Below are positions 5,799 through 64,000 of a stretch of 64,000 nt of DNA, piece after piece. The DNA is taken from positions 56,022 through 120,021 of the IMG/VR virus record IMGVR_UViG_3300044981_000204. One strand, 5' to 3'. The notes beneath the pieces were generated by a model. That model made no database searches, was not told the DNA's origin, and saw only the letters and a list, made by a program, of their open reading frames with translations. Both the position numbers and the translations under genes were made by a program. The DNA is from a virus. The stretch's first letter is position 1, and each line of letters opens with the position of its first letter.

Positions 5799-6476
5799 AT
5801 GATTAGGCCAATGATCTTGTTGCTTGCGCCGTTGGCCCTAGCGGTGTCGCAGCCCACGGTGCAGCCCGGTGGCGTTCGCCATGTGACCGTCTCATTCAGC
5901 GCCCAGGGGGCGTTGGGGTCCTCCCTCACCGGGTTGAGCTTCACGGGCTATAGTGCCACGGTGTGCAGTGCAGATGGCCAGGGCATCGACGTGGGCGGTG
6001 GGAGGGTTTGGCAGGCGGCTGAGTCCTTGGGGTTGAGGCTCGTCACGCCCCACGTTGCCTCTCTAGCCGCAACACAAGCTAAGGCCAGATCAAAGTGGCA
6101 GATAATGGCCGTGTTGGGTGCTGAGCTGATGTTCGACATGGCCGTAGTAGCTGGCGCAGACATCGTTCACGTGAACCCTGCTAAGGTCGTTGGCAAGGTT
6201 TGGCGAATCACCCCAATCATCCTCAATAAGAAGCTGGGGGATTGGAACGCTCAGCAGGCCCTGGTCCACCCGGACCTGGTCTCATCCTTCGGAGACCTTG
6301 CCCTGTACCCGGACCACATCATCAGCGTGTCGTCCGGCGGAAACTGCCCACAGAGGCTGTTCCTCGCATCTTCGGGAGGACCGGATGGTGGCTCGGTGGA
6401 TCTGCAGATAGCTGTGCTGCCACCAGCAGTGGTGTTCGCCCCCACCCCACAAGCTGCTCCCGTTCTCGGGAAATAG
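5799..6476 (+). CDS. Hypothetical exported protein
   Basis: SD GAGG; MIRPMILLLAPLALA signal-peptide-like N-terminus. Confidence 0.6.
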   Translation: MIRPMILLLAPLALAVSQPTVQPGGVRHVTVSFSAQGALGSSLTGLSFTGYSATVCSADGQGIDVGGGRVWQAAESLGLRLVTPHVASLAATQAKARSKWQIMAVLGAELMFDMAVVAGADIVHVNPAKVVGKVWRITPIILNKKLGDWNAQQALVHPDLVSSFGDLALYPDHIISVSSGGNCPQRLFLASSGGPDGGSVDLQIAVLPPAVVFAPTPQAAPVLGK

Positions 6477-10122: not shown

Positions 10123-10315
10123 GGTCCTTTTCCTTCCTAGACGCGTTCCACTCGCCGTTGACTATCTTGCATATGGTAGACTTGCAAACGTCGAAGTGCC
10201 TCGCCGTGCTGGCCAAGCCGTGCTTCTTCCTGTATTGCTTTATGAGGTCGCGGAGGCCGCGGGTCTTGCCGTAGGTCCTCATGTGTGGCTTGCGCTCGTA
10301 TATGCCCCTGGGCAT
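10109..10315 (-). CDS. Small basic HTH DNA-binding protein
   Basis: LASTARHFDVCKSTICKIVNG helix-turn-helix pattern. Confidence 0.6.
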   Translation of the reverse strand: MPRGIYERKPHMRTYGKTRGLRDLIKQYRKKHGLASTARHFDVCKSTICKIVNGEWNASRKEKDRGPK

Positions 10316-11841
10316 TAGAACGGCTCCACCTTCCCAACTACCTCCTTGGGCACGTCGAACGGCTGTGTTTGCTTATTGAAGGACCTCAGAGACCAGAGGT
10401 TGGTGCCGCGTCCCTTAAGGTTCTTGAATGTGTGGTCTGCCCCCACGTCCCGGAGCATGGACGCTATCTTCTGCCTCTTGAAGTCGGTCAGCTTCATGTG
10501 CGTCAGGAATGTTTGCAGGTCCTGCAACCTGAAGTACGTCCTGCTGCCCTCGGTATACGGCTTGCCGAGCACCACCTCCTCAAGGGATATGGCCTGCGCG
10601 CGCCCAGTGCAGAACTTCTCCACGGCCTCCCAGAACTGGCCCTCCGGCGAGGAGTCCTCCGACGCCTCTATGATGGTTATCCCGTCCATAGCGTGCTGGA
10701 CAGCCGCCTGCCAGTTCACGGCAGAAGGCATCGGCGGCATCAAGTTGAGGGACTCCATGCACTTCCTCTGGAAGCGCCTTGGGTCCTGCAGGTCCTCGGT
10801 GGCTAGCTCCATCCTGGTGCCGTCTATCTCCCAAAACCAGACCGGGGGCCTGGTGTTCAGCTTGCTTAATCCACCCAGCGTGGGGAACTTGCCGTTTGCC
10901 CCGCTACCTACGCCGAACTTCCTCGTCCTGCAAAGCGTCGCGTTGCAGTGGCTGCATATTGGTTCCCTAGAACAGCTATAGGTGTAGTCCTTCTTCCTGA
11001 GCGACTTTGAGACCCCCTGGACCTCGGAGGCGAGGAGCGGGGGACTCATATACTTATAGTTGTACTGGTCGAGGGCCCGCTCCCAGTCGTCAGGTTGAGA
11101 CAGCTTAAGGTAGACGCCAATGTTGTAGAGGCCGTTGTTGCGCGACCCCGTCGGGTAGCCAACCTGCGACAGGGCCTGCAGGCACGGGGGACCATCCTCG
11201 AACTCCGACTCGAGGACTAATTTGGAGTTGAACCACTCGGGCGACTGCCTGCACTCGTCGGCATACCTTAAGAACTGTTCGGGAGTTAGGGCGTTTCCCT
11301 CCATGTCCACGGCGTAGCGCATACCGCGGACTCCGCTGAAGTAGGGCACATTGATCCAGCTCCCAACGTCTGACTGCTCGACCAGGATGTGGGACTGCTT
11401 CGGGAAGATCTCCTGTTTACCGTAGCCGAGCAAAGACGCTACCTCACCAAGCTTTATCCTCATGGCCGAGGCAGGGATCGGCTGTCTGGAGAAGCAGTAG
11501 AGGTGGGCTCCCCCCGACTTGGTGCGGCAGACGACCAAAGGGATGTTGCTCCGCTTTAGCTTAACAACCAGGGTTCGATGGTCGAGGTTATAGATGTCGA
11601 CGTCTATGGCGCCAAAGACGCACGTGCTGTCCTCACGTATGGGAACTATGCCCAGGCCGTGGCCTCCCGCCAGGTGATCCTCCCACAGAGCCAAAGTGAC
11701 CGGGGCCCGCTTGGTCTGAGCGACGCCGACTTTTTTGCCGTCATCCCGTGAGCTGTTCACATCGTAGGTGCCGTAGGCGGTGCTCATGCCAGCAAATAGC
11801 TGGTTGAACTGTTCAGCTAACGATGTAGTGGTGCTACTCAT
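10315..11841 (-). CDS. Phage DNA primase (AEP-like with PriCT-like C-terminal region)
   Basis: FGAIDVD, RTKSGGAHLY, GSWINVPY, PPCL...GSRNNGLY motifs. Confidence 0.82.
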   Translation of the reverse strand: MSSTTTSLAEQFNQLFAGMSTAYGTYDVNSSRDDGKKVGVAQTKRAPVTLALWEDHLAGGHGLGIVPIREDSTCVFGAIDVDIYNLDHRTLVVKLKRSNIPLVVCRTKSGGAHLYCFSRQPIPASAMRIKLGEVASLLGYGKQEIFPKQSHILVEQSDVGSWINVPYFSGVRGMRYAVDMEGNALTPEQFLRYADECRQSPEWFNSKLVLESEFEDGPPCLQALSQVGYPTGSRNNGLYNIGVYLKLSQPDDWERALDQYNYKYMSPPLLASEVQGVSKSLRKKDYTYSCSREPICSHCNATLCRTRKFGVGSGANGKFPTLGGLSKLNTRPPVWFWEIDGTRMELATEDLQDPRRFQRKCMESLNLMPPMPSAVNWQAAVQHAMDGITIIEASEDSSPEGQFWEAVEKFCTGRAQAISLEEVVLGKPYTEGSRTYFRLQDLQTFLTHMKLTDFKRQKIASMLRDVGADHTFKNLKGRGTNLWSLRSFNKQTQPFDVPKEVVGKVEPF

Positions 11842-22398: not shown

Positions 22399-23283
22399 TT
22401 ATATCTTGCTGAACTCCGGCACGTACTCACTGAGCCCGTCTCCCGTGTCGACCTTCTTAAAGTCCTGGAAGAGCTTCGGCCACCGGCGCATGGCGTCCTC
22501 CGCCACCATCCCGAACACGATCCGAATCTCCTCCTCGGCGTGCTTACTGGTCCTCTGCTCGATGATCCACCTGAGGGAACGAAGGTTGAAACTCATGCCG
22601 ATGCCGGTGGCGAGGCCCAGCGGCGCGACGCGCCGGAAGGCACTGGTCAAGCGCTTCTTTAGGTCGAAGTCCTTGATGTTGTCGATGTCGTAGTACTTCG
22701 CTAAGAAGTGCTGCGTCCACTCCATGACGTATATTGCGTACTCAAAGGCATCCTTTGGGGTCAGTTCGACTGACCTTGGGTTCTCTTGCTCAAGGATCCC
22801 AATTGGAAGGGGACCAAACGTCCTATAGGGCCTCGTCTCCTTGGAGATTATAGGAGGAATCCAAAACTGAATATCTGTTAGGCGAACGTAGCGCAGGGAC
22901 TCCTGGCTCCTCTCGTTCCCCACCCAGTTGCGTACCATCTCATGCGTGAACACCCTACTCACGTCCTCGAACGCGTAGTGCACGTGCCCGTGCGCAGTCA
23001 CGGACCCGTGGCGGCTCTTGATTATGTTGAGGTGGTACTGCTCGCTGTCCTTGCGGACCTTAGTGACGTTGGGGTTGAGGCCAGGAGCATATGACTTATA
23101 GCAGCGGCGCGCCAGCAACTCAATGAGTCGCTCGATATCGGAGCCGTCGACGTGCTCCATACACGAGAGGGCCTCCTCGCCGCCGATGTGGCGGAGCCAC
23201 TGCGTGACGCCGGGATCGTCGTCGGAGCCTAAGTGCATCTTGGGCTGGCCGAGGAAGAATACCTTGGGTGTCACTGCAGTCAT
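22399..23283 (-). CDS. thyX: Flavin-dependent thymidylate synthase
   Basis: ARRCYKS, HGSV, SRVFTHEMVR...SQESLRYV, NLRSLR, HAEEEIR; the RHR motif is altered to RNW. Confidence 0.85.
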   Translation of the reverse strand: MTAVTPKVFFLGQPKMHLGSDDDPGVTQWLRHIGGEEALSCMEHVDGSDIERLIELLARRCYKSYAPGLNPNVTKVRKDSEQYHLNIIKSRHGSVTAHGHVHYAFEDVSRVFTHEMVRNWVGNERSQESLRYVRLTDIQFWIPPIISKETRPYRTFGPLPIGILEQENPRSVELTPKDAFEYAIYVMEWTQHFLAKYYDIDNIKDFDLKKRLTSAFRRVAPLGLATGIGMSFNLRSLRWIIEQRTSKHAEEEIRIVFGMVAEDAMRRWPKLFQDFKKVDTGDGLSEYVPEFSKI

Positions 23284-23642
23284 TCGTCCGTCCTCCTCTT
23301 GTTGAACTTACCATATTTACTCAATATCAAGTACATTCGGAGCCTTCCTTCTGCATTCGACGAGTGTATAGCTACCCCTAGCTTTGGCCACGAGTTGTTT
23401 TGCTCCATCCACAGAACGACGGCTAAGCCAGTCCTCCTCCGCTCCCAGTCGTCGTCGGCGGTCGCGTCGCCGTCCGCGTCCCAAATCACATCGTGGTCGA
23501 GGGAAGCCTCATCCACCTCACCGGTCTTGAGAAGTGCAACCGCCTCGCCAACTGTCTTGGCAGGAGTCCAACCAAGGGGAGCAGGACGAAGGTCGTCGAG
23601 CCAGAGCTTCACAACAAGTCCACTAAACTTGCTGGTTCCCAC
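23280..23642 (-). CDS. Cyclic-phosphate-processing receiver-like domain protein
   Basis: LWLDDLRP...SLDHD...TG...IHSSN. Confidence 0.75.
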   Translation of the reverse strand: MGTSKFSGLVVKLWLDDLRPAPLGWTPAKTVGEAVALLKTGEVDEASLDHDVIWDADGDATADDDWERRRTGLAVVLWMEQNNSWPKLGVAIHSSNAEGRLRMYLILSKYGKFNKRRTDE

Positions 23643-24374: not shown

Positions 24375-24808
24375 TCAGTACTTCTTACCAGACTTCCTTT
24401 CGGTGCTCTCGACCGCGGCCATGGCTAGTGCCGCCACCTTGACCATCCTCGACCTGAAGTCGGCAAGGTTCGTGCCCTTCCGCATGGCGCTATCGAGCTC
24501 TTCACGCGATCCCGGAAGCACTAGCACCGACCCCAGCTGCCTCCTGATGAACCCAAGGAACTCCACGTACGTGTGCTCGTCGTTGTGGCGAGGACCTCCC
24601 CACTGTTGGTCCTGGGCCTTCCTCTCCCTCATGACCTCGACGATGAACCTCCTTTTGGCAGCATCGATGGGAGCAGGGCTTGGAGGAAGTTTCGGTACTC
24701 CCGAACCCCCAGCTGGGGGAACCGCGAACCGCTCATCTTCTTCATCCACGATTGGTCGGTGGCCTCTAGCGGTTGATATTCGAACGTGCTCGTCGCGGGC
24801 CTCACCCA
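24375..24808 (-). CDS. All-alpha NTP-PPase-like phage protein
   Basis: EVMRERKAQDQQWG...MVKVAALAMAAVES; SD AGGAGG upstream of ATG 24808. Confidence 0.55.
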
Positions 24809-25134
24809 TTCCCTCGGTCCCTCCTATTTTTAAGCGCCGACGATATGGCACTTAGGAAGTCGTCCACCGCCGAGTCGATCGCCTCAACCAGCGAGGGCTT
24901 AGTGGCTGAACGCACGACCACCTTTCCCCTGCCGTACTTCTCCTCATACCTCACGAGGGAGCAGTAGTACTGGTCGCCCGGGACCATCGACAGCACTATG
25001 CCCGGCGACGTGTCGTCGGTGGGGTACATCTTGGTGAGGACCCCTAGGGACTTCTGGAGTCGCAGTAGAGGGGCGTCTGACGGTAGCTTGCCGTCGACCT
25101 TCTTACTAACTAGCTTTTTCTTCGTCTTTAGCAT
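24802..25134 (-). CDS. Hypothetical protein
   Basis: Packed ORF; its 3' end holds the 28-nt site matched at 57529-57556. Confidence 0.6.
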   Translation of the reverse strand: MLKTKKKLVSKKVDGKLPSDAPLLRLQKSLGVLTKMYPTDDTSPGIVLSMVPGDQYYCSLVRYEEKYGRGKVVVRSATKPSLVEAIDSAVDDFLSAISSALKNRRDRGNG

Positions 25135-39837: not shown

Positions 39838-40266
39838 CTATGGATCCTTGATCAAGATGGACACAGCCAACTGGACGTCGTGCCACTGCAACCCCACGTC
39901 GGGATCGGGCATAACAAGCTGCTTGGAGAACTCCCCCAAATCGGTTGGTTCGTCGTCCACCACCACGAACGCGCCAACCTCGTTGCGAGCGAGCCAGTAG
40001 CCGACCTCAGCTCCTCGGTCGTCGTCCTCAGACTCGCCCGACTTGTCGAGCACCATCCCCCTGTAGCCCCAGCCCTTAAGCAAGGACGTGAGCTGTTGAA
40101 CGGTTCGCCCGATCCTCCAGTTGCTGATCACTACCACGCTTGCCCCCGTTAGTTGAACTATGGCGTTGAGGTTTGAGATAGCGCCCGCGCTGGGGACCTT
40201 CGTTGGTTTGCAACCCGCATACGGTAGAAGAACACCGTCGAAGTCGAGGAACAGGACCTTAGTCAT
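39838..40266 (-). CDS. HAD phosphatase (Swiss-Army-knife RNA-repair type)
   Basis: LFLDFDGVL, VVISNWR, RGAEV..WL, VVVDD. Confidence 0.8.
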   Translation of the reverse strand: MTKVLFLDFDGVLLPYAGCKPTKVPSAGAISNLNAIVQLTGASVVVISNWRIGRTVQQLTSLLKGWGYRGMVLDKSGESEDDDRGAEVGYWLARNEVGAFVVVDDEPTDLGEFSKQLVMPDPDVGLQWHDVQLAVSILIKDP

Positions 40267-40717
40267 AACCAATCCTCAGTTTTTTGAGGGTCAACATCCT
40301 AATTACCTTGCTAGCGTCGGACCAGATCATCCCCCACGTCGGGTTGACCAGGACCAGCCTCTCCTCGAGTGGCCCCAAGCCCTTCGGGTCGTCGTCGACG
40401 ATCGCGTAGGATTCGACCTGAACCTTCGAGTCCACGAGCCATTCCGCTATCTCCCTCCCGCGGGAATGGTCCCCGTCTACGGGGGTAGCGCCAACTATTG
40501 AACCAGCGAACCCCCACCTCTTGAAGATCTCCGCGAGGTCTTCGTTAGATTTACCGATCCTCCAGTCGCTGGTGACCACCACCTGGGCTGGAACGACGTC
40601 GCAGATCAAGTTCAGCATCGCTATGGCTTCACCGCTCACCGTTGCCGGGCGCTGTTTCTTGTTGGGGCCAGAAAACTTAACAAGTACGCCGTCTATGTCG
40701 CAGAATATGATCTTCAT
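40259..40717 (-). CDS. HAD phosphatase, tandem paralog
   Basis: IFCDIDGVL, VVTSDWR, RGREIAEWL, AIVDDD. Confidence 0.8.
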   Translation of the reverse strand: MKIIFCDIDGVLVKFSGPNKKQRPATVSGEAIAMLNLICDVVPAQVVVTSDWRIGKSNEDLAEIFKRWGFAGSIVGATPVDGDHSRGREIAEWLVDSKVQVESYAIVDDDPKGLGPLEERLVLVNPTWGMIWSDASKVIRMLTLKKLRIGYD

Positions 40718-41487
40718 ACTTGTACGCACACCTTCGGCTCATCCTCGGTGCCACCCGCCTCCAGAAATAAGCAGCTCTCCCTTCCCTTGAGCCTGACGGG
40801 CCTTCCGGCTTCCTTCTCGGCCGCGACCACTTGCTTGACTTCCTCGAGCTTCTCCGGGGAGCGCCACTGCAGTGCCCTGACCATCGCCGCGGGGAGGTCT
40901 CTCCTAGCGTCGTCCTCGACCATCTCCACTATCTCTCGCGCGAGCTGCGTCTTCAGCTCTATTATGCCCTGGTCGGGCGCAAGTAGGACGACCTTGTCGA
41001 CCCAGGTCTCGAGCGCGCTCCAGACCAGGTACGGGACCCTTTTGTCTGCTTTTAAGGAATCCCTTAGCTTGCCCGCGAACACCCTGAGCTGCTTCACGGG
41101 GCACTTGAGGATGGGGTTCAGGCACTCCTCGACGGCCGCCTCGAACCTATCTGCCTCGTCCTTGTCGTGGGCCATTGCGAGCCCTACTATCAGCTCGTGC
41201 CACTTCCCGACGAACTCGTCCACGTCTATCGGCACTTTTTTCTTCCTTCCCGAGCGAAAGCACTCCTCGCTCCCGATCCATATCCAGCACCCGAGCTCCC
41301 TCGCCCACTTAACTGCGGAAAGGGACAGTCGGTGATGCGGCGGCGTGTTGCCCTCTGCGAAGTGGAGCCTACCTATTTCGTAGGTGGCCAACAGCCACGT
41401 GCGGAGACCGGTCGCCTTGAGTTTTTCTTCCGCGACTCTTTCTGCCTCTTCGGTCGTCGGGGTGTGCTCAAGCGTCCAGTCTACCAC
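40714..41487 (-). CDS. Hypothetical helical protein
   Basis: 257-aa packed ORF. Confidence 0.6.
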   Translation of the reverse strand: MVDWTLEHTPTTEEAERVAEEKLKATGLRTWLLATYEIGRLHFAEGNTPPHHRLSLSAVKWARELGCWIWIGSEECFRSGRKKKVPIDVDEFVGKWHELIVGLAMAHDKDEADRFEAAVEECLNPILKCPVKQLRVFAGKLRDSLKADKRVPYLVWSALETWVDKVVLLAPDQGIIELKTQLAREIVEMVEDDARRDLPAAMVRALQWRSPEKLEEVKQVVAAEKEAGRPVRLKGRESCLFLEAGGTEDEPKVCVQV

Positions 41488-51114: not shown

Positions 51115-51224
51115 TCCTCCCGACTCCAGGCCCAATGACCCAGTAACCGCCAGCTAGGAGAATTCATCCACCGACGTGGAAATAGCGGTTTGATTCCCTG
51201 CTATTGAGCCTGGGGTCCGGAGGA
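51115..51224 (-). repeat. Intergenic hairpin family, copy H1
   Basis: UCCUCCGGACCCCAGGCUCAAU pairs with AUUGGGCCUGGAGUCGGGAGGA. Confidence 0.75.
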
Positions 51225-51731: not shown

Positions 51732-52624
51732 AAGTTCGATCCAGCGCTACCGGACCGACGTGTCGGACGGGGACTTATCTGGGCCCCCTGCCAGCATCTG
51801 TTATGGTGACGATGTCCAACCCTCCGTTTTTGTCGTGCGCCCTGATGTTCATCCTGCAGAGATGAAGGAGTGCAGGGTCTTGCCGAAAATCACGAAGAAA
51901 AAGTCGCGGGGGCCGGGTCGCCGCAATGGCTGCTAGTTGACCGCCTGAAACCTCGGCCCCCAATCCGTCAAACTGACGGAATATCGATCACGTTGAAGCC
52001 CAAACTCGGTTCTCGTCGAACCAGTCCCACAGCCGCTCCAGCGACGCGTTGAACCAGTCCAATTCGTTCGCCGTGGCGGCGTTGTCCAGCTTGTCGAGGA
52101 GCGGCTTCGCCCCGAGCGCGAGGCCCCCGGGCAACTTCGCGACCTCCCCGCGTATCCCCTTGGCTGCCCTGACCATGTCCTCCTGCGACTCGCCGTCGAC
52201 GTCGAGGTACCGCCTTATGCTGACCTTGTATAGCCACCTTGCCATGGTGTTCCTCCTCCACTATAAAATCACCTAGCGCTGATCCATTGCCAGCTCCCGA
52301 GGACGTCCATCCTGTAGCTGCCCAGCATGTCGTGCTTGCGCAGGTGGTGCTCCCACGAGCCCCGAGGAGGCTTGCTGGGCCAGAGGTGGAAGATCCTCAG
52401 GCCCACTTCTTCAGCTATCTGCAGAGCGTGGTTCCTGTCCCCCACCTCGCGCTCTAACCCCTTGTACCTCATCCACATGGGCCTGGAGCTCAGTGACCGG
52501 AGTCGGAGACCAGCAGCAGCCAGACTATCCCGACCCCGATAGCGATGATCAGGAGTTCCACCAGCGCGCGACCGACCTTCCTCAACTTCCCACCTCATCA
52601 AATACCTTTACGAGCCATCGAATT

Positions 52625-53002
52625 TTCGGGGATTCTGTTGCCAGGCTCCCCTAGGGCCCCGCTACGCGCGGCCTATTAGGCCGCGTACGCCAGGACCAGG
52701 GGTTGAACCCGGGGCCTGACTGGCATGGTGACTACCTTTTTGGCGGCACCTGTGGTTTGCTACGTTCCAGGGCAACCTGATGCTAGGTCGACCCGCGGCG
52801 TTCGCCTGCCGATTGCCTCCAGCGCCCCTCACTGCCACGTCGAAACCAATTCGCCCCCACCGAGGGAGTGATGGCACACGTCTTGATGTCCTGCAAGATA
52901 ATTGCGCTCATGCATAGTGTGTTGCCCCATCACTGCCCTGGTGGAGGCGCCGGGGATCGAACCCGGGTCCGCGATAGCTACTCACGCCTTCATCAGCAAA
53001 AT
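52625..53002 (-). ncRNA. ssrA: tmRNA, circularly permuted two-piece form
   Basis: T arm and acceptor 3' end GGACCCGGGUUCGAUCCCCGGCGCCUCCACCA (CCA ends at 52939) come before the 5' end GGGGGCGAAUUGGUUUCGAC (starts 52858); G3.U70 pair; tag ORF 52747-52676 AAKKVVTMPVRPRVQPLVLAYAA followed by two stops; outer boundaries approximate. Confidence 0.9.
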
Positions 53003-53634
53003 CAATCCCTCACTCAATCTATTGTACATCGGAGATTTGGCGGTGCACAGGAATGTTGCTGAGTTGTTCCCGATACTCTTGCGGGTGCAGCAGGCAAAAC
53101 GCCGGGAGTCCCGCGAACGTTCCTGGCAGAGTAGTGGCGCACACGTTGCCCTCATAAGTGATACTCCTGCTGTCACCAACGAAGTAGCCGAACTGATCGC
53201 GGATCCGCCCCGGGACCACGATCCCGTCCCAGGTACCTAGTTCGAACTCATGGCTGAGTTTACATCGAAACAGGACCCGGTCTCTGTGCTTGAGCCAGAG
53301 CATAGACCTTACCTCGGCACCCTGCGCACGTGCTCGTGCGGCCGCTGCTTCCCGTCCTTCCCCTTCCGCCCCATGTGGTGGGTCGTCACGTTCTCACCAC
53401 GCCCTCTACCGTGCAGGTGTTCTTGAACTTGGTCCGCGGCCTGCGGCCGAGGTCTCGGATCCTGCTATTTGCCCTTGCCACTATTGCCTCCCTTTTCCAC
53501 GGCCTCGAGGAGCTTCAAGGCCTCGTCGGCCCTATCGGCTGCCTCGGCAACCGTCAAGTTCTTCCTATCGATGTGGAAGAAGAACACGTCCACCCAAAAA
53601 CTGACCTGTTTCTCTTTTCTCAATCTAATGAACC

Positions 53635-56350: not shown

Positions 56351-56968
56351 TCACCCTGGCCCCCTCAGGGAGAGCACAGAGCACCCGAACTCGACCACCA
56401 GCGCTATGGCGGCTCGGTAGGTCGACCAGGGTTGACACTCGGTATGTTCGGCCAACTCGTCTGGGTCCTCGGACCTGAGCCAGTAGCCTATGTCTCGGAC
56501 GAGGCACCCGACCCCCACCTTCGTGGGGGAGTTTGGGTAGACCGGGTAGGGGTGGCACTGGACCTGGAGGGGGGTTCGGGTGCAGGTGACCAGGTCGCCG
56601 AGCTGGACCCCGTTGCCGAGCACGACCCCGTCGCCGACCACAGCCCCGTTGCCGAGCACGGCCCGGTCTCCGACCACGGCCCCGTCTCCGACCACGGCCC
56701 GGTCGCCGACCACGGCCCCGTTGCCGAGCTCGGCCCAGTTGCCGAGCTCGACCCAGTTGCCGAGCTCGGCCCCGTTGCCGACCACAGCCCCGTTGCCGAG
56801 CACGGCCCAGTTGCCGAGCACGGCCCGGTCGCCGACCACGGCCCCGTTGCCGAGCTTAACTTTGAACCCTATCTTGATCGTCCTACCGTTTGTCAGCTTT
56901 CGCCAGCCTAAGTTATCCTGAGCAGCCGCCATGATCTCATCTACCGTCATGTGTTCATTGGCCTCCAT
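56351..56968 (-). CDS. Hexapeptide-repeat (left-handed beta-helix) protein
   Basis: Long run of [LV]G[ND]xA[VE] repeats. Confidence 0.85.
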   Translation of the reverse strand: MEANEHMTVDEIMAAAQDNLGWRKLTNGRTIKIGFKVKLGNGAVVGDRAVLGNWAVLGNGAVVGNGAELGNWVELGNWAELGNGAVVGDRAVVGDGAVVGDRAVLGNGAVVGDGVVLGNGVQLGDLVTCTRTPLQVQCHPYPVYPNSPTKVGVGCLVRDIGYWLRSEDPDELAEHTECQPWSTYRAAIALVVEFGCSVLSLRGPG

Positions 56969-57369
56969 GTGCCGCCATGTGTTCGTTGTACTTCATATGA
57001 TGGAATATGTTCGTTTGACTCCCTAGTTCGACATCCCATCCCATCCCAAGTCAGTGTCCCTCCGCTTTGACCACCACGGCTGCCCATCGCTCATATTTCT
57101 CGCTCTGATTGTCGGGTTCGAACGGGTTGAATTGATGTTCGGCGGCCTCTTTGAGCGCTTTGAGAAGTTCAGGCGCGGCTCGATGCAGCGGACAGTGTCG
57201 CACGAAATACCGCATAGCCGCGTCACATTCGACAGAACACGTGCAACTCACGACCGCACCGCCCTTGCGCCGCTCACCAAGCCATGGTTCCAGAAGGCCT
57301 TAACTTGCGCCATATGTTCGTTGCACGCCATATGCCACCATGTGTTCGTTGGACTTCCCTAGTTCGACA
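56948..57369. repeat. Two clusters of 28-nt-period repeats
   Basis: CATRTGTTCRTTG at 56948, 56976, (57004), 57311, 57339; each cluster ends in CCCTAGTTCGACA. Confidence 0.75.
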
Positions 57370-57528
57370 AAACCGCGCCCGGGCCTCGACCATCTCTAAC
57401 ATGACGTGGAGGGCGGGCGCGGGGGCGGGGGCCTTTTTCAGATGTATCAGATTACATTTGCCTGAAGCAGAGACGCTACCGCCCAACCAGTTACATGGCG
57501 CTACCATCTAACAGATGTGGCCGCAACC

Positions 57529-57734
57529 ACGACTTCCTAAGTGCCATATCGTCGGCTGACGAAACAGCGATGGGTTCCGGACTCGGGGAACCGGCGAACC
57601 CGCGAACTTCGTGAGGCGGCAAGCACTCGCTAGATCGGCAGGTTTGCTGGAGCGGATTCGCGCGGAACCCCGACTCAGGAACCCATCTTAAAGCAGCCGA
57701 CGCCAGCGAGGTAGGCTTGCCAACTACCTCACAA
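57529..57734 (-). ncRNA. Candidate bistable RNA with 28-nt antisense tail
   Basis: Two long alternative helices, G.U wobbles favouring the minus strand, TACAAT at 57739-57744, exact reverse complement of 24836-24863. Confidence 0.68.
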
Positions 57735-58711
57735 GACCATTGTATGTCGGGTTTTGCCTGCGGTAAACGGGAAAGATCCCGCGCTGGTCAGGGGGTTTGG
57801 GGTGGGGGCGCCGACAGTAGGACAGGGGCAGGCGACCCGGCCTTGAGCAGGTCGACCAACTGCTCCCTTAGCCTCGAGTCCTCCTCGCGCAGGGTGCCGT
57901 GGTATCCAAAGAGCAGCTCTGCGAACCTGTCGTAGGTGTCCGACGACGTCGCCCCGCTCGCGTAATCCGCGGCGACGCCCATGGCGCGGTCTATTGCCGC
58001 GTGCAGCAGGCCGTCGGACATTGGTATGGTCGTTAAGGTAGTTCTCCAAAAAACCTCTTACGTTTTCCGCGTCAGTCGAGTCCTCCACGTTGACCCGCAC
58101 CTCGATTATGGCCGTAGTGCTGGCTGTTTTTTCGGACATAGTGTTTTTCTAAGTAACGCTAGTGAGGGGAATCACGACCTCGCACACCTTCTTGCCGTCA
58201 TTGAGTCGATACTGGTATATGGCTCCCTCGGAGGAGTAACAGAAAATCTCCAACTTGAGCTCTCTTGGTATAGTCACATCCTCGCAATCGTTTTCAAGAA
58301 TAAGTACAAGCTCAATTTTTTGGGGGTCCACGAGATCGCGGCACATCACGTTGTAGGAGACCTCTAAGCCGTTGAACCTGACCTCTTCGACGGTTCCTAC
58401 CCTATCTGGGCACGAAACCTGTCGGACGACGTCGTTCTTCATGAAGCGGTACTGTATTTGTGGCATAATACCTCGCTTTGGGATTAATACTACCTCGGGT
58501 TTTGGATCCTAGACCGGGGAACTTACGTCGTCCACTTTTGGGTGGACTGAGACCCTCGATCCCAACCCAACGACTCGAGCGCCGCCCTCGCGGCCGATCT
58601 CGCCAGACTTAAAGCCGGGGTGGTCGGAGCAAATGATTCTGTAGTATTTTGCCATTTAAATTGGATCCCGGAATTTCGGGGATCTGGCGAGCTGGGAGTC
58701 TGGAGGCCGGG

Positions 58712-58759
58712 CCGGGGCCGGGGCCGGGGCCGGGGCCGGGGCCGGGGCCGGGGCCGGGG
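58712..58759 (+). repeat. (CCGGGG)8 microsatellite, G-quadruplex-prone
   Basis: 8 perfect hexamers in intergenic DNA. Confidence 0.95.
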
Positions 58760-59095
58760 TCCCTCACCTTACCTCGATCCCACGCTCGAGTGCGACCTTT
58801 AACTCCTCGAGGGAGTAGCTGGTGACTTTGGCCGTGGTGCGGTCCTCGGACAGGTCTACTCGGTAGGCCCCCTCTATCATGCTGTTCTCAATCATGTAGT
58901 TCAGGACCTCCAAATCATCGACCTTCCCCAACGACCTCGCCACGAGGGCCGATCCCCTCAGGTCTTTTTGGCGGAGTTCTATCTTCATAATGTGGTTCAA
59001 TCCTCGGACCATCCTAGCACGGGGTCTGGGGTGGGGGGTCCACAAAATGTAACACTTTGCCGCCCGCGGCGACTCCCGCCTCCCGATTCCAGCCC

Positions 59096-60174: not shown

Positions 60175-60428
60175 CTATTCAGTTGTCAAAGGTCTCGCAG
60201 GTTCCCGCCAATTCGAGACCTTGCAAGGTTCCGGCGCGCGGGATGGGTGGCTGCAGAGACAAGTATGGGTCCCTTCAACCCGAGGTCCAGCGAACCGTTC
60301 TCCCTAAGGGTTTGCCAGCCGAAGGAGGAGCGCTTCGATGAATGGTCCGTACTGGACCTTGGGTTCAAGAGACCCACTTCAACAAACTCCTCTAAATCCA
60401 GGCGACTGGCAATTCGCCCTACGAGACC
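60175..60428 (-). ncRNA. Structured leader RNA ending in a hairpin plus boxA-like element
   Basis: 22/24-bp stem 60267-60290 with 60352-60375; 10-bp pseudoknot 60312-60321 with 60403-60412; CUUUGACAACUGAAUAG. Confidence 0.58.
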
Positions 60429-61109: not shown

Positions 61110-61204
61110 TCCTCCCGACCCCGGACTCCAGCCGCCATATCCAGGCGTAGCTCCCCTGTCTACGGGAGCATCGCCAATGCTGCTGGAGTCCGGGCTCGGG
61201 ACGA
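61110..61204 (-). repeat. Intergenic hairpin family, copy H4
   Basis: CCCGAGCCCGGACUCCAGC pairs with GCUGGAGUCCGGGGUCGGG, followed by AGGAAUC-AUG. Confidence 0.72.
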
Positions 61205-61491
61205 GCCCTACCGCGCCAGCGCCTTCTCCCTCCGCACCCGCTCCAGGTGCTTTTCGCGCTCCTCAGCCGTCTGCGGCAGGTGTCCCCGCCTCAGGAACCT
61301 GCCAACGCTGCCCCTTGGCTCGGCGCCGCAGCAGCATTTCTTCAACTTCTTCAAGAGCATTTTAACTTCCTCCTTCTCCAGACTCCCTACCCAGGACTTC
61401 CCCGAAGTGGGTCTCATGCACTTTGCGGCATGAGCGAGACCTCGGAACCAGTCCTGAGTAGGGACTCTGGAGACCAGAGTCCAGGACTACT

Positions 61492-62001: not shown

Positions 62002-63088
62002 GTGCAAATCACCTCACAAGACCATTGTAGCACAGTTTGGTGCGGAGTTTGCTTGTTTGTGTTCTCCCGCACCATGAATTTGCGGGGTCCTGGTCTTACG
62101 TACTTAGGCCGAGGACCCAGCGAAGCTCCTCGATTCGAGAGGAAAGCTCCGCCATCTTGGGCTCGGATCCAACCGGTACCCGTAGTTCTCGAGGCGCTCG
62201 AGCTTGCGGTACTGCGTGACGTAGACCTGCAGCCGAGCGTCGATCTCTTGTTGAGTCCTCATACGCCTCCTACCTCGGGTTCCACACTATCACCACCCCC
62301 AGCGACTCAAGCTGCCGGACCTCGGCGTCCGTTATCGGGACCCATTCGCTCGACCCGGGCACCCGACACTCGCGGCCGGAGCCGGGGATCGGGGTACGCC
62401 AACGTATCTCGTACATGTTCGACCTCCGCTTAGTTTTGCTCACAGAACCATCTTAGTGCGGAATTGGCTCCCGCGGCTCGGTTGTTCCAACAACCAGCAG
62501 GTTCCTGGTCACAAGGACTCCTGCCCACGGCAGCGGAGTCCCGGCTCGCAGTTTGCTGTTGTACTCACAGACCCATCATATTACAGATTTGGGTCTAGGA
62601 TTCCGGAATTTACTGCTCGACTTCCTCCTCCGGCAACGAGTCGATTAGGTCCTGGACCTTCTGCGCAGCAGTCTGGGTCATGCGAGCGGTCCACGGGACC
62701 GCGACCTCGCCGATCCCGTCTACCTCGACGCGGATCATCGTAATACACTTTGGTTTGTTCATACTACGATCATACGTCGGATGTGGTGCCTGGTTTCCGG
62801 AATGTTGTTTCCTGGTTCGGGCTTCCGGGCTGGGGAGGCGGGGGGCGGGGGGCGGGGGTCCCGAAAGAGTTCACCCTCCTCGGGCGACCTGCTCTCAGGT
62901 GTTAGTCTAATAGTTCAGCCTAGGCGGCGGACGAGCGTACTCTCGGGCGGTCATCTTGGGTTTGTTTAACATAGTTAGTCCCATTTTTATTTTCCTAGTT
63001 CACCTAGGATATTCGATCCGTTCGGAGCATATGGCCCAAATTGGTCATGTGGACCACATTGGGCCACGATTTGGTCGACCACCAATCC

Positions 63089-63520: not shown

Positions 63521-64000
63521 CTAGTTCTCCTTCGCCTTCTTCTTCAACTTCCGCAGCAACCTAATTAACTGCTTTGCTTCCTCTATCGCCGCATCAATCT
63601 GCACCTTGGTTGTTTCTACGGAAAAAGAGCCAATCGTTTGATATAGCTCCTTCGCCCCATAGTACACGGTCATCGCATCCATGCTAATTGCCTCCCCTTA
63701 TTTTTATCTCCAACTGCCTGATCTTCTCGCTGAGCGCCGCGACCTCCGCGGCCCTCGTGCCTACCACCGGGGCAGTCGCCCTGGCGGCCATCCTCACCAG
63801 CTCCTTCCTCAGCTGGTACTTGCGCCCAGCCTTGACCGAGCGGACCCCCTGGACAGGGGGTTTGCCTAGCTCGGCTTCGACGAGGCCCAACGCGTCCGGC
63901 GCCCAGCAGGCGAGGTCCTTGGCGCCGCAATCGTAACACCACCACGTGAAGCCGCTAAACTGTGGGTCATAGGCTCGATAGATATTTAGCCCGGTGAGGT

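Follow-up and report, generated by a model that had tools for sequence, protein, structure and literature searches.

A candidate trans-acting antisense RNA with two long crossing helices in the putative early region of a ~120-kb soil phage

We analysed a locus on the minus strand of a phage genome, IMG/VR virus record IMGVR_UViG_3300044981_000204 (120,021 nt). The window, that is, the whole stretch of DNA that was analysed, comprises 64,000 nt (bases 56022–120021 of the record), and all positions below refer to it unless stated otherwise. A first-pass annotation had described the locus (57734–57529) as a bistable RNA of ~200 nt, in which two mutually exclusive long helices, A and B, gate an antisense tail. 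We tentatively read the locus as a trans-acting regulatory antisense RNA that would be expressed from a minus-strand region, presumably early, of a soil phage of ~120 kb. The earlier observation proved largely right and its antisense reading plausible, whereas the bistable gate is unsupported as stated. The reading rests on a 28-nt segment, at the foot of helix B, with an exact complement in a distant operon of the same phage.

The 28-nt match and its proposed target operon

The match joins the following features.

57529–57556 (minus strand): antisense segment GCCGACGAUAUGGCACUUAGGAAGUCGU, an exact match, whose central CUUAGGAAG lies mostly unpaired in a small hairpin loop
24836–24863 (minus strand): target site on the messenger RNA (mRNA), ACGACUUCCUAAGUGCCAUAUCGUCGGC, codons 91–100 of the 110-amino acid (aa) gene
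24802–25134 (minus strand): 110-aa gene carrying the target, with a coding signal, from an uncharacterised family of ~100-aa proteins
24375–24809 (minus strand): downstream 144-aa gene, phrog_2831-like, overlapping the 110-aa gene

The plus strand at 24836–24863 equals the minus strand at 57529–57556 exactly (28 of 28 nt), and no such match arose by chance in 100 shuffles. The antisense match to the operon at 24.8 kb reported in the first-pass annotation is thus exact, and complementarity of this extent cannot be due to chance. Apart from the terminal overlap of the record, the 28-mer is the sole exact repeat of at least 20 nt in the genome with copies more than 2 kb apart. The two copies are separated by 32.7 kb, and the target operon is transcribed co-directionally (minus strand); with this orientation, the predicted RNA would be antisense to the minus-strand genes located at 24.8 kb. 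After the 28-mer, the longest antisense match of the locus was 12 nt long for minus-strand (co-directional) transcripts and 13 nt long on the other strand, with the locus itself excluded. Identity of the 28-mer ends sharply on both sides. Flanking homology was not found around it, a single 17/19 direct match being no better than the best shuffle. We also considered an extended inverted duplication of the target, as in plant microRNA genes, and rejected it, as no homology reached beyond the 28-mer.

The central CUUAGGAAG of the 28-mer had an unpaired probability of 0.8–0.96 in the 204-nt RNA. The duplex of 28-mer and target was estimated at −54.8 kcal/mol, compared with opening costs of 11–15 kcal/mol for the RNA and 17.1 kcal/mol for the target, so that pairing would be favourable on balance.

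The target site encodes DDFLSAISSA, within the C-terminal part of the aligned family domain, and ends 10 nt upstream of AGGAGG (24825–24820), the ribosome-binding site of the next gene. The ATG (24809) of the 144-aa gene precedes the stop codon (24804–24802) of the 110-aa gene; the two therefore overlap in a pattern typical of translational coupling. The coding signal of the 110-aa gene is clear (log-likelihood 0.448 per codon; GC content at third codon positions 0.76). Its family is widespread and counts 122 representatives at E ≤ 1e-3, with the consensus YPxDPxxPGxVxS...YYxSxVRY...GKxVV. The protein had no match in Pfam, PHROG or PDB sequences, and a word-index search returned only the protein itself. 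A structure search of the Atlas gave a sub-threshold likeness to ribosome hibernation factors (template-modelling score 0.55), which we treat as a lead only.

As the gene copy of the 28-mer is in frame within a conserved domain, the non-coding copy would be the derived one and the gene copy the older or constrained one. Two related genome fragments (G001 and G002) have kept homologues of the 144-aa gene, while the 110-aa gene is absent at that position in both; the antisense relationship would therefore be evolutionarily young.

Folding of the locus and the proposed switch

The predicted structure of the RNA involves five elements.

57696–57734 (minus strand): helix A, 5' arm (leader), pairing with 57609–57639
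57609–57639 (minus strand): helix A, 3' arm, inside the apical region (57604–57651) of hairpin B
57652–57702 (minus strand): helix B, 5' arm, seen in duplex energy and minimum-energy folds
57550–57603 (minus strand): helix B, 3' arm, whose last 7 nt, GCCGACG (57556–57550), are the first 7 of the antisense segment
57706–57732 (minus strand): 5' hairpin GUGAGGUAG...CUACCUCGC, which covers the GAGG ribosome-binding-like sequence and is the alternative partner of the leader when B is formed

Both helices of the first-pass annotation are present where it had placed them, with duplex energies of −46.1 kcal/mol (A) and −77.3 kcal/mol (B). Helix B is a near-perfect hairpin of ~150 nt whose ~45 pairs form stretches of 9, 10, 6, and 10 bp that are interrupted by small internal loops. 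Helix A is formed by the leader and the apical loop of B, and all of its pairs cross all pairs of B; the only stretch common to the two helices is CGUCGGC (57702–57696). The minus strand from 57734 to 57529 (206 nt) folds at −101 kcal/mol, with shuffles at −74.4 ± 4.3 kcal/mol (z −6.16, 0 of 200 as good). Its minimum-energy fold combines helix B with the 5' hairpin GAGGUAG/CUACCUC, as the annotation had anticipated. On its own, this hairpin reaches −12.5 kcal/mol (z −3.8), and none of 200 shuffles folded as well. The 366-nt predicted RNA folds at −172.4 kcal/mol (z −7.0, 0 of 100 shuffles as good).

The significance of helix A was estimated against several backgrounds. Its score of −46.9 compares with −26.3 ± 3.8 for 1000 shuffles of the leader (best −46.7) and with −20.4 ± 5.5 for 1237 genomic 39-mers (best −40.2). 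When 48-nt windows were taken, ~10 of 9598 genomic windows reached −44 or lower, near helix A. Helix A is probably real, yet much less secure than B because these windows come close. Predicted folding is stronger for the minus strand than for the plus strand, both over the whole locus (−101 vs −94.6 kcal/mol) and for helix A (−45.6 vs −36.8 kcal/mol). This fits an RNA read from the minus strand, which G–U pairs also favour.

In a GC-corrected scan of 2397 genome windows of 200 nt, the window 57551–57750 ranked fifth for structure. Only windows at 61.05–61.55 kb and in the tandem-repeat gene at 56.65–56.85 kb ranked above it, and those at 61.3–61.55 kb were the most structured of the genome (z −5.3). 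Further near-perfect hairpins were observed at 61375–61473, 61110–61204, and 60266–60376 (minus strand), with arms of 24–26 nt that are 88–92% complementary. They lie between or over small early genes and may be processing sites or further RNAs.

We then assessed whether the two helices form a switch. In stepwise folding, A was the minimum-energy fold of the nascent chain at the tested lengths of 120–155 nt, and B took over from 160 nt. The cotranscriptional check suggested in the first-pass annotation thus gave A and then B sequentially in silico, but A was lost at equilibrium. At full length, the ensemble with A enforced had −88.0 kcal/mol vs −103.4 kcal/mol overall: B wins by ~15 kcal/mol, and A makes up ~1e-11 of the equilibrium ensemble. 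Because the two sets of pairs cross throughout, a nested model allows no B pair until A has fully melted. The barrier of the direct path from A to B was 50–65 kcal/mol, an upper bound that ignores pseudoknotted intermediates. A transient or kinetically trapped A is therefore possible, as a timed switch would have it, but thermodynamic bistability is not.

The helices had also been called too long to coexist as a pseudoknot. All pairs do cross, and coexistence of full A with full B looks geometrically hard by our own estimate, in which the leader joins the base of B within ~2 nt and its partner sits at the apex ~45 bp away. A partial pseudoknot is possible, however, with leader nt 1–29 paired to the apical loop in the presence of B; its naive energy sum is −110 kcal/mol.

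The proposed gate itself did not hold up. Opening the whole 28-mer costs 11.0 kcal/mol in B vs 11.2 kcal/mol in A for the 204-nt RNA, and 14.9 vs 14.6 kcal/mol for a 361-nt RNA. The GCCGACG said to be sequestered by B and freed by A costs 8.9 kcal/mol to open in the B state and 8.0–8.6 kcal/mol with A enforced; the values are nearly equal because the freed 3' arm folds back over GCCGACG in the A state. The CACUUAGGAA seed loop costs 2.0 kcal/mol in B and 4.3 kcal/mol in A and is, if anything, more open in B. With opening costs equal in both states, gating of the antisense segment is unsupported.

The mini open reading frame (ORF) MASLPRWRRLL that was to couple the switch to translation does exist, with 11 codons. 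However, its TTG start is located just 2 nt past GAGGU at the very 5' end of the RNA, with only ~2 nt of leader before the ribosome-binding sequence. The ORFs of the unit also lack a coding signal (see below). Translation of the mini-ORF is unlikely, and so is translation sensing.

The predicted transcription unit and its genomic setting

Four elements bear on the limits of the unit.

57739–57767 (minus strand): sigma-70-like promoter, −35 TTTACC (57767–57762), 17-nt spacer, −10 TACAAT (57744–57739)
57423–57528 (minus strand): 3' domain of the predicted transcript, moderately structured, no coding signal
57367–57422 (minus strand): terminator-like element, a GC-rich branched hairpin (57422–57373) followed by UUUUGU (57372–57367)
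62003–62029 (minus strand): second copy of the −10 and leader, TACAATGGTCTTGTGAGGT (E 3e-4)

The TACAAT noted earlier at 57739–57744 was found together with a TTTACC 17 nt upstream, directly after the upstream stop codon. This TTTACC-17-TACAAT is the sole minus-strand consensus match in 47–64 kb, and the regional count of matches is not above that of shuffles. Transcription would start at ~57732. The TACAATGGTCTTGTGAGGT copy at 62029–62011 has an extended −10 (TGc) and is followed by GAGGTGA, 7 nt, and the ATG of a 171-aa gene. As TACAATGGTCTTGTGAGGT recurs ahead of a real gene at 62 kb, the motif behaves as a promoter with a 5' leader.

The terminator-like hairpin has −33.4 kcal/mol (z −3.4) and is missed by a simple terminator scan because its loop exceeds 8 nt. 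It is the sole terminator-like hairpin of the unit. No 3' end was predicted at 57529, and the antisense "tail" of the first-pass annotation is thus not a tail in the predicted transcript. We infer an RNA from ~57732 to ~57367, ~366 nt long, as a separate unit. Given that the hairpin lies past the 28-mer and the transcript would reach ~160 nt beyond it, the 28-mer is probably internal (nt 177–204) unless the RNA is processed.

No coding signal was found within the unit: the ORFs 57491–57622 and 57274–57507 scored −0.02 and −0.04 per codon, and their GC content was even across codon positions. In the genes on either side, the scores were 0.39 (the upstream neighbour, 77 aa) and 0.42 (the hexapeptide-repeat gene on the other flank). 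No transfer RNA (tRNA)-like element was detected within the locus by ARAGORN.

Two further candidates from the region were dismissed. The local motif GAGTCGGG, common to several sites at 51–61 kb, marks ribosome-binding contexts of small genes and not related RNAs. The apical loop as a second seed for the 62-kb mRNA leader gave −32.5 kcal/mol against a background of −22.9 ± 6.1 kcal/mol, which is not exceptional. A recurrent GGGAGTCGGGAGGA(A/T)TCA was observed a few nt ahead of ATG at 51126, 51426, 51666, and 61128 (minus strand). It is a common ribosome-binding context of several small early genes in stretches without long ORFs.

The ends of the record repeat each other: genome positions 1–200 and 119822–120021 (window 63801–64000) share 72 + 127 identical nt around one mismatch. 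Owing to this 200-nt end repeat, the genome can be considered essentially complete, although the record is labelled linear (circularly assembled or terminally redundant). The first ~60 kb of the record carry structural genes on the plus strand (terminase, scaffold, P22-type coat, and lysozyme). The minus strand of the window carries replication genes (family A DNA polymerase, UvrD-type helicase, and AEP primase), genes of nucleotide metabolism (ThyX, a thymidylate-synthase-like protein, dCMP deaminase, and thymidylate kinase), methyltransferases, and a Pam3 gp33-like protein, and then small orphan genes over ~17 kb. From the inward direction of the minus-strand genes, which start at the right end of the record, we infer that the region at 47–64 kb is early. 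Many of the phage ORFs match no known family. A Pfam scan of 117 ORF translations yielded no integrase, invertase, resolvase, reverse transcriptase, Cas, TnpB, or RNase III families. Cumulative GC skew has no turning point at the locus.

The closest cultured phages share <40% DNA polymerase identity. In blastn searches of 50,697 phage records, the locus had no match, and 7 kb of the early region had one 53-nt chance match. Among viral contigs, no relatives were found for the neighbouring proteins of 105 aa, 77 aa, and 226 aa or for the C-terminal part of the hexapeptide protein, and the 28-mer and the 19-nt promoter/leader sequence had 0 matches each. The DNA polymerase hit two fragments in the viral contigs (66–71% identity), both without the locus and without the 110-aa gene at its position. 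A 112-aa protein hit two distant contigs, in which no match to the RNA scored below E 0.15; Rfam found only tRNAs in them, and no comparable long-range inverted repeat was seen. Genome contigs contained neither a 22-mer of the 28-mer nor a 21-mer of helix B (0 matches each). A metagenome scan with the 28-mer made degenerate at codon third positions returned 15 loci, which we attribute to chance because none was BLAST-similar to the phage. Contigs of the single DNA run with the stretch (run X1, a soil metagenome and possibly the source of the record) reproduced 56827–58200 without differences or joints.

Several other features of the window were recorded. The 205-aa hexapeptide-repeat (left-handed beta-helix) gene contains 13 tandem copies with an 18-nt period at 56558–56899 (minus strand), and the independent assembly of run X1 breaks at this repeat. 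A local duplication (57299–57369 and 56936–57033, minus strand), with TGTCGAACTAGGGA and repeated CAACGAACAYATGG units, lies ahead of and over the start of the same gene; its upstream copy precedes no more than a short ORF that begins similarly (M..NEHM). At 58702–58753, a GGGGCC-type hexanucleotide tandem repeat would give a Gly-Pro run if read in the ORF 58609–58767 (minus strand). A permuted (two-piece) transfer-messenger RNA (tmRNA) is encoded at 52585–53031 (minus strand), with Rfam RF04321 scoring 82 bits at 52676–53000 and the ARAGORN tag peptide AAKKVVTMPVRPRVQPLVLAYAA. ARAGORN also reported a 97-nt tRNA-like gene at 6228–6324 (minus strand) with a four-base anticodon (aagg) and no amino acid, which may be spurious. 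Finally, a cyclic-phosphate-processing receiver domain (23280–23642, minus strand), two tandem HAD_SAK_2 genes (39838–40729, minus strand), and an AEP-TOTE primase domain (10315–11841, minus strand) represent domains that are otherwise described from RNA-repair and conflict systems.

Proposed function, alternatives, and known systems

If the locus is an antisense RNA, the mature molecule would consist of the 5' hairpin, the ~150-nt hairpin of helix B, and the 3' domain, with the 28-mer at the 3' foot of B. The loop-exposed CUUAGGAAG would start pairing with the mRNA of the nucleotide-metabolism operon, and pairing would zip to a 28-bp RNA duplex in the last codons of the 110-aa gene. This duplex could serve as the substrate of a double-strand RNase (RNase III-type) or block coupled translation. 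Expression of the 110-aa and 144-aa genes would then be lowered or uncoupled once the early RNA had built up. Helix A would be a transient nascent fold replaced by B, not a second functional state that gates the seed.

A number of points weigh against this reading. The promoter matches the consensus at only 9 of 12 positions, and the consensus is that of sigma-70, which may not be that of the host. The U-tract of the terminator (UUUUGU) is short. No RNA homologue was found in the collections scanned, from which records very close to this genome may be missing, so that covariation backs neither helix nor the pairing of the 28-mer with its target. One DNA run is listed as containing the stretch, but no RNA run. 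Perfect identity with sharp edges also fits a recent neutral 28-bp copy; non-coding DNA tolerates such relics, and the prior for antisense orientation is one in two. The target lies off the ribosome-binding site itself, so that repressing translation would require cleavage or disturbed coupling. Finally, other hairpins of ~100 nt occur between early genes, and helix B may be one of a broader class of hairpins that have nothing to do with the 28-mer.

In one alternative, the 28-mer is a neutral, recent relic without function: a small inverted piece of gene sequence, left by illegitimate recombination or template switching, that landed in an early leader with structure or in an intercistronic region. 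Helix B would then belong to a group of long hairpins in early transcripts that act as RNase III-type processing or stabilising sites. We regard this as rather unlikely, though it is the most probable of the alternatives. Perfect, sharply bounded identity is what a young copy would show, and the two nearest relatives, in which this position lacks the 110-aa gene, likewise suggest a young relationship. Comparable long hairpins exist in the early region (61473–61375, 61204–61110, and 60376–60266), 61.3–61.55 kb is more structured than the locus, and other local duplications occur in the neighbourhood. On the other hand, the 28-mer is the sole dispersed repeat of its kind in 120 kb, and its position is precisely the foot of the hairpin, with the central part in a loop. 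It also belongs to a unit with promoter-like and terminator-like signals of its own and is in antisense orientation, and helix A constitutes additional complementarity that would be superfluous in a mere processing hairpin. The two-state switch of the first-pass annotation, in which the antisense seed is exposed by A and hidden by B, and control of the distant operon is timed either by refolding or by translation of the mini-ORF, is improbable. The order of nascent folds, the need to melt A, the apparent steric conflict of the full helices, and the hairpin of the leader as a compensating partner would suit it; the equal accessibility of the segment in both states, a seed loop more open in B, the minute equilibrium share of A, the placing of the mini-ORF, and the possible partial coexistence of the helices argue against it.

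Two further explanations are less probable still. The locus could act at the DNA level, with the 28-bp copies serving recombination or inversion, replication, or packaging, and the palindrome at 57.55–57.70 kb forming a cruciform or origin-like site. The exact inverted 28-bp pair and the strong inverted-repeat character of the DNA, whose plus strand also folds well, agree with such a site. Yet it is very improbable, given that no integrase, invertase, or resolvase family was found among the ORF translations, an inversion would reverse the orientation of 32.7 kb within the replication module, the locus shows no turn in GC skew, and G–U pairs favour a minus-strand RNA. The contigs of run X1 likewise show no joint or alternative arrangement over 56800–58200, which is a weak argument as it comes from contigs only. 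The least probable of the explanations is that the RNA is a scaffold with a 28-nt guide for an unrecognised RNA-guided protein of the phage or host, much like the guide RNAs of TnpB/Cas12-type proteins or of their nuclease-dead, transcription-repressing derivatives. A long structured scaffold does directly precede an exact, sharply bounded 28-nt match, and the many phage ORFs without a known family leave room for such a protein. However, the 117 ORFs include no Cas, TnpB/OrfB, IscB, or IS110-type family, no repeat flanks the 28-mer, and the upstream gene encodes just 77 aa. In addition, no Rfam guide-RNA family matched, and the predicted transcript runs well past the putative guide.

We also considered, as a long shot, a bolder version of the antisense reading: a self-timed RNA with microRNA-like logic in a lytic-type phage, in which folding kinetics serve as an early-to-middle clock. 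The nascent RNA would be trapped in A, and slow refolding to the ~45-bp helix B would create a substrate for a double-strand RNase. Cleavage would free a 3' fragment starting beside the 28-nt guide, which would direct cleavage of the operon mRNA at the junction behind the recently acquired 110-aa gene.

To our knowledge, most of the regulatory RNAs described for phages belong to temperate coliphages and prophages, and they either overlap their targets or use short, imperfect seeds. If the antisense reading is true, the present RNA would differ as a separate early non-coding unit of a large uncultured soil phage with a perfect 28-nt match to its own distant operon. It would imply that RNA control of phage timing can arise fast, by capture of a short antisense copy of a new gene, and the two long crossing helices would offer a naturally occurring model of kinetic traps that arise during transcription. 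Should the 28-mer be no more than a relic, what remains is a structured early leader of the ordinary sort.

We compared the locus with known RNA families and classes. In a search of the whole window with Rfam 15 (including C4 antisense RNA, 6S, Y RNA-like, tracrRNA, and omega-RNA), only the permuted tmRNA matched at gathering score. Over 56900–58300, a search at E ≤ 10 returned only mir-84 (16 bits, E 1.6, gathering score 60), due to UGAGGUAGU. The first-pass annotation had counted on the locus matching no known Rfam family, and this was borne out at both thresholds. The locus has the complementarity of a trans-encoded base-pairing small RNA (28/28 nt, −54.8 kcal/mol). By function, its nearest counterparts are c4 of phages P1/P7 and 24B_1 of phage Phi24B; by folding, they are the metastable mRNAs of type I toxins.

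P4 CI RNA and c4 are of the same type, namely phage-encoded structured antisense RNAs. They are ~70–80 nt long, are processed from the operon that they control, pair through short, split segments placed on or close to the ribosome-binding site, and function in the immunity of temperate elements. As described in PMC12197685, c4 displays in its loops a complementarity to phage mRNA and shuts off downstream genes. The locus resembles these RNAs as a phage-encoded structured RNA with a loop-displayed pairing segment. In contrast to them, it forms a separate predicted unit of ~366 nt with a single perfect 28-nt match in a coding region; it does not lie in the leader of its target operon, which is 32.7 kb away in a different section of the minus-strand gene array. 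The only complementarities within the unit itself are helices A and B, and no integrase was found among the 117 ORF translations. The 24B_1 RNA of the Stx phage Phi24B is ~20 nt long, cut from a hairpin precursor of ~80 nt, and acts on d_ant to promote lysogeny of this temperate phage (PMC12197685). Both would be phage RNAs with a hairpin acting on another gene of the same phage; the locus differs in that the 28 complementary nt are at the foot of the hairpin rather than within it, and in that processing is only conjectural.

The hok-type mRNAs encode small toxic peptides, and their antisense RNA lies close by or overlaps them. The locus shares with hok/sok and aapA3/IsoA3 the succession of mutually exclusive helices, seen here in silico, of which the later refolding times activity or antisense pairing (see PMC6733600 and PMC11228461). 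In contrast, it contains no credible peptide ORF, only the 11-codon TTG ORF 2 nt past GAGGU; its partner is 32.7 kb away, and the segment is equally accessible in both states. Nor does it resemble a leader-peptide attenuator: helix B is followed by GAUAUGGCAC and not by a U-run, and the terminator-like element comes ~130 nt later.

T7-like phages have long imperfect RNase III processing hairpins between early genes. Helix B, as predicted, is likewise long and mostly double-stranded, and this phage has several such hairpins between early genes. The locus differs from those of T7 as a non-coding unit with a promoter-like signal, an apical loop that pairs with the leader, and an adjoining perfect antisense segment. 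TnpB omega-RNAs and type V CRISPR RNAs (crRNAs) consist of a structured scaffold followed by an exact, sharply bounded segment of ~16–28 nt. Unlike these 3'-guide RNAs, the locus has no nuclease gene, repeat, or transposon end that we could find, and its match is in its own genome; the 69 + 48 ORF translations, which span the genome, contained no Pfam family typical of CRISPR crRNA, TnpB/IscB omega-RNA, or IS110 bridge RNA systems. The locus thus differs from all systems compared, as a separate unit with a single distant perfect 28-nt match in a coding region and two long crossing helices.

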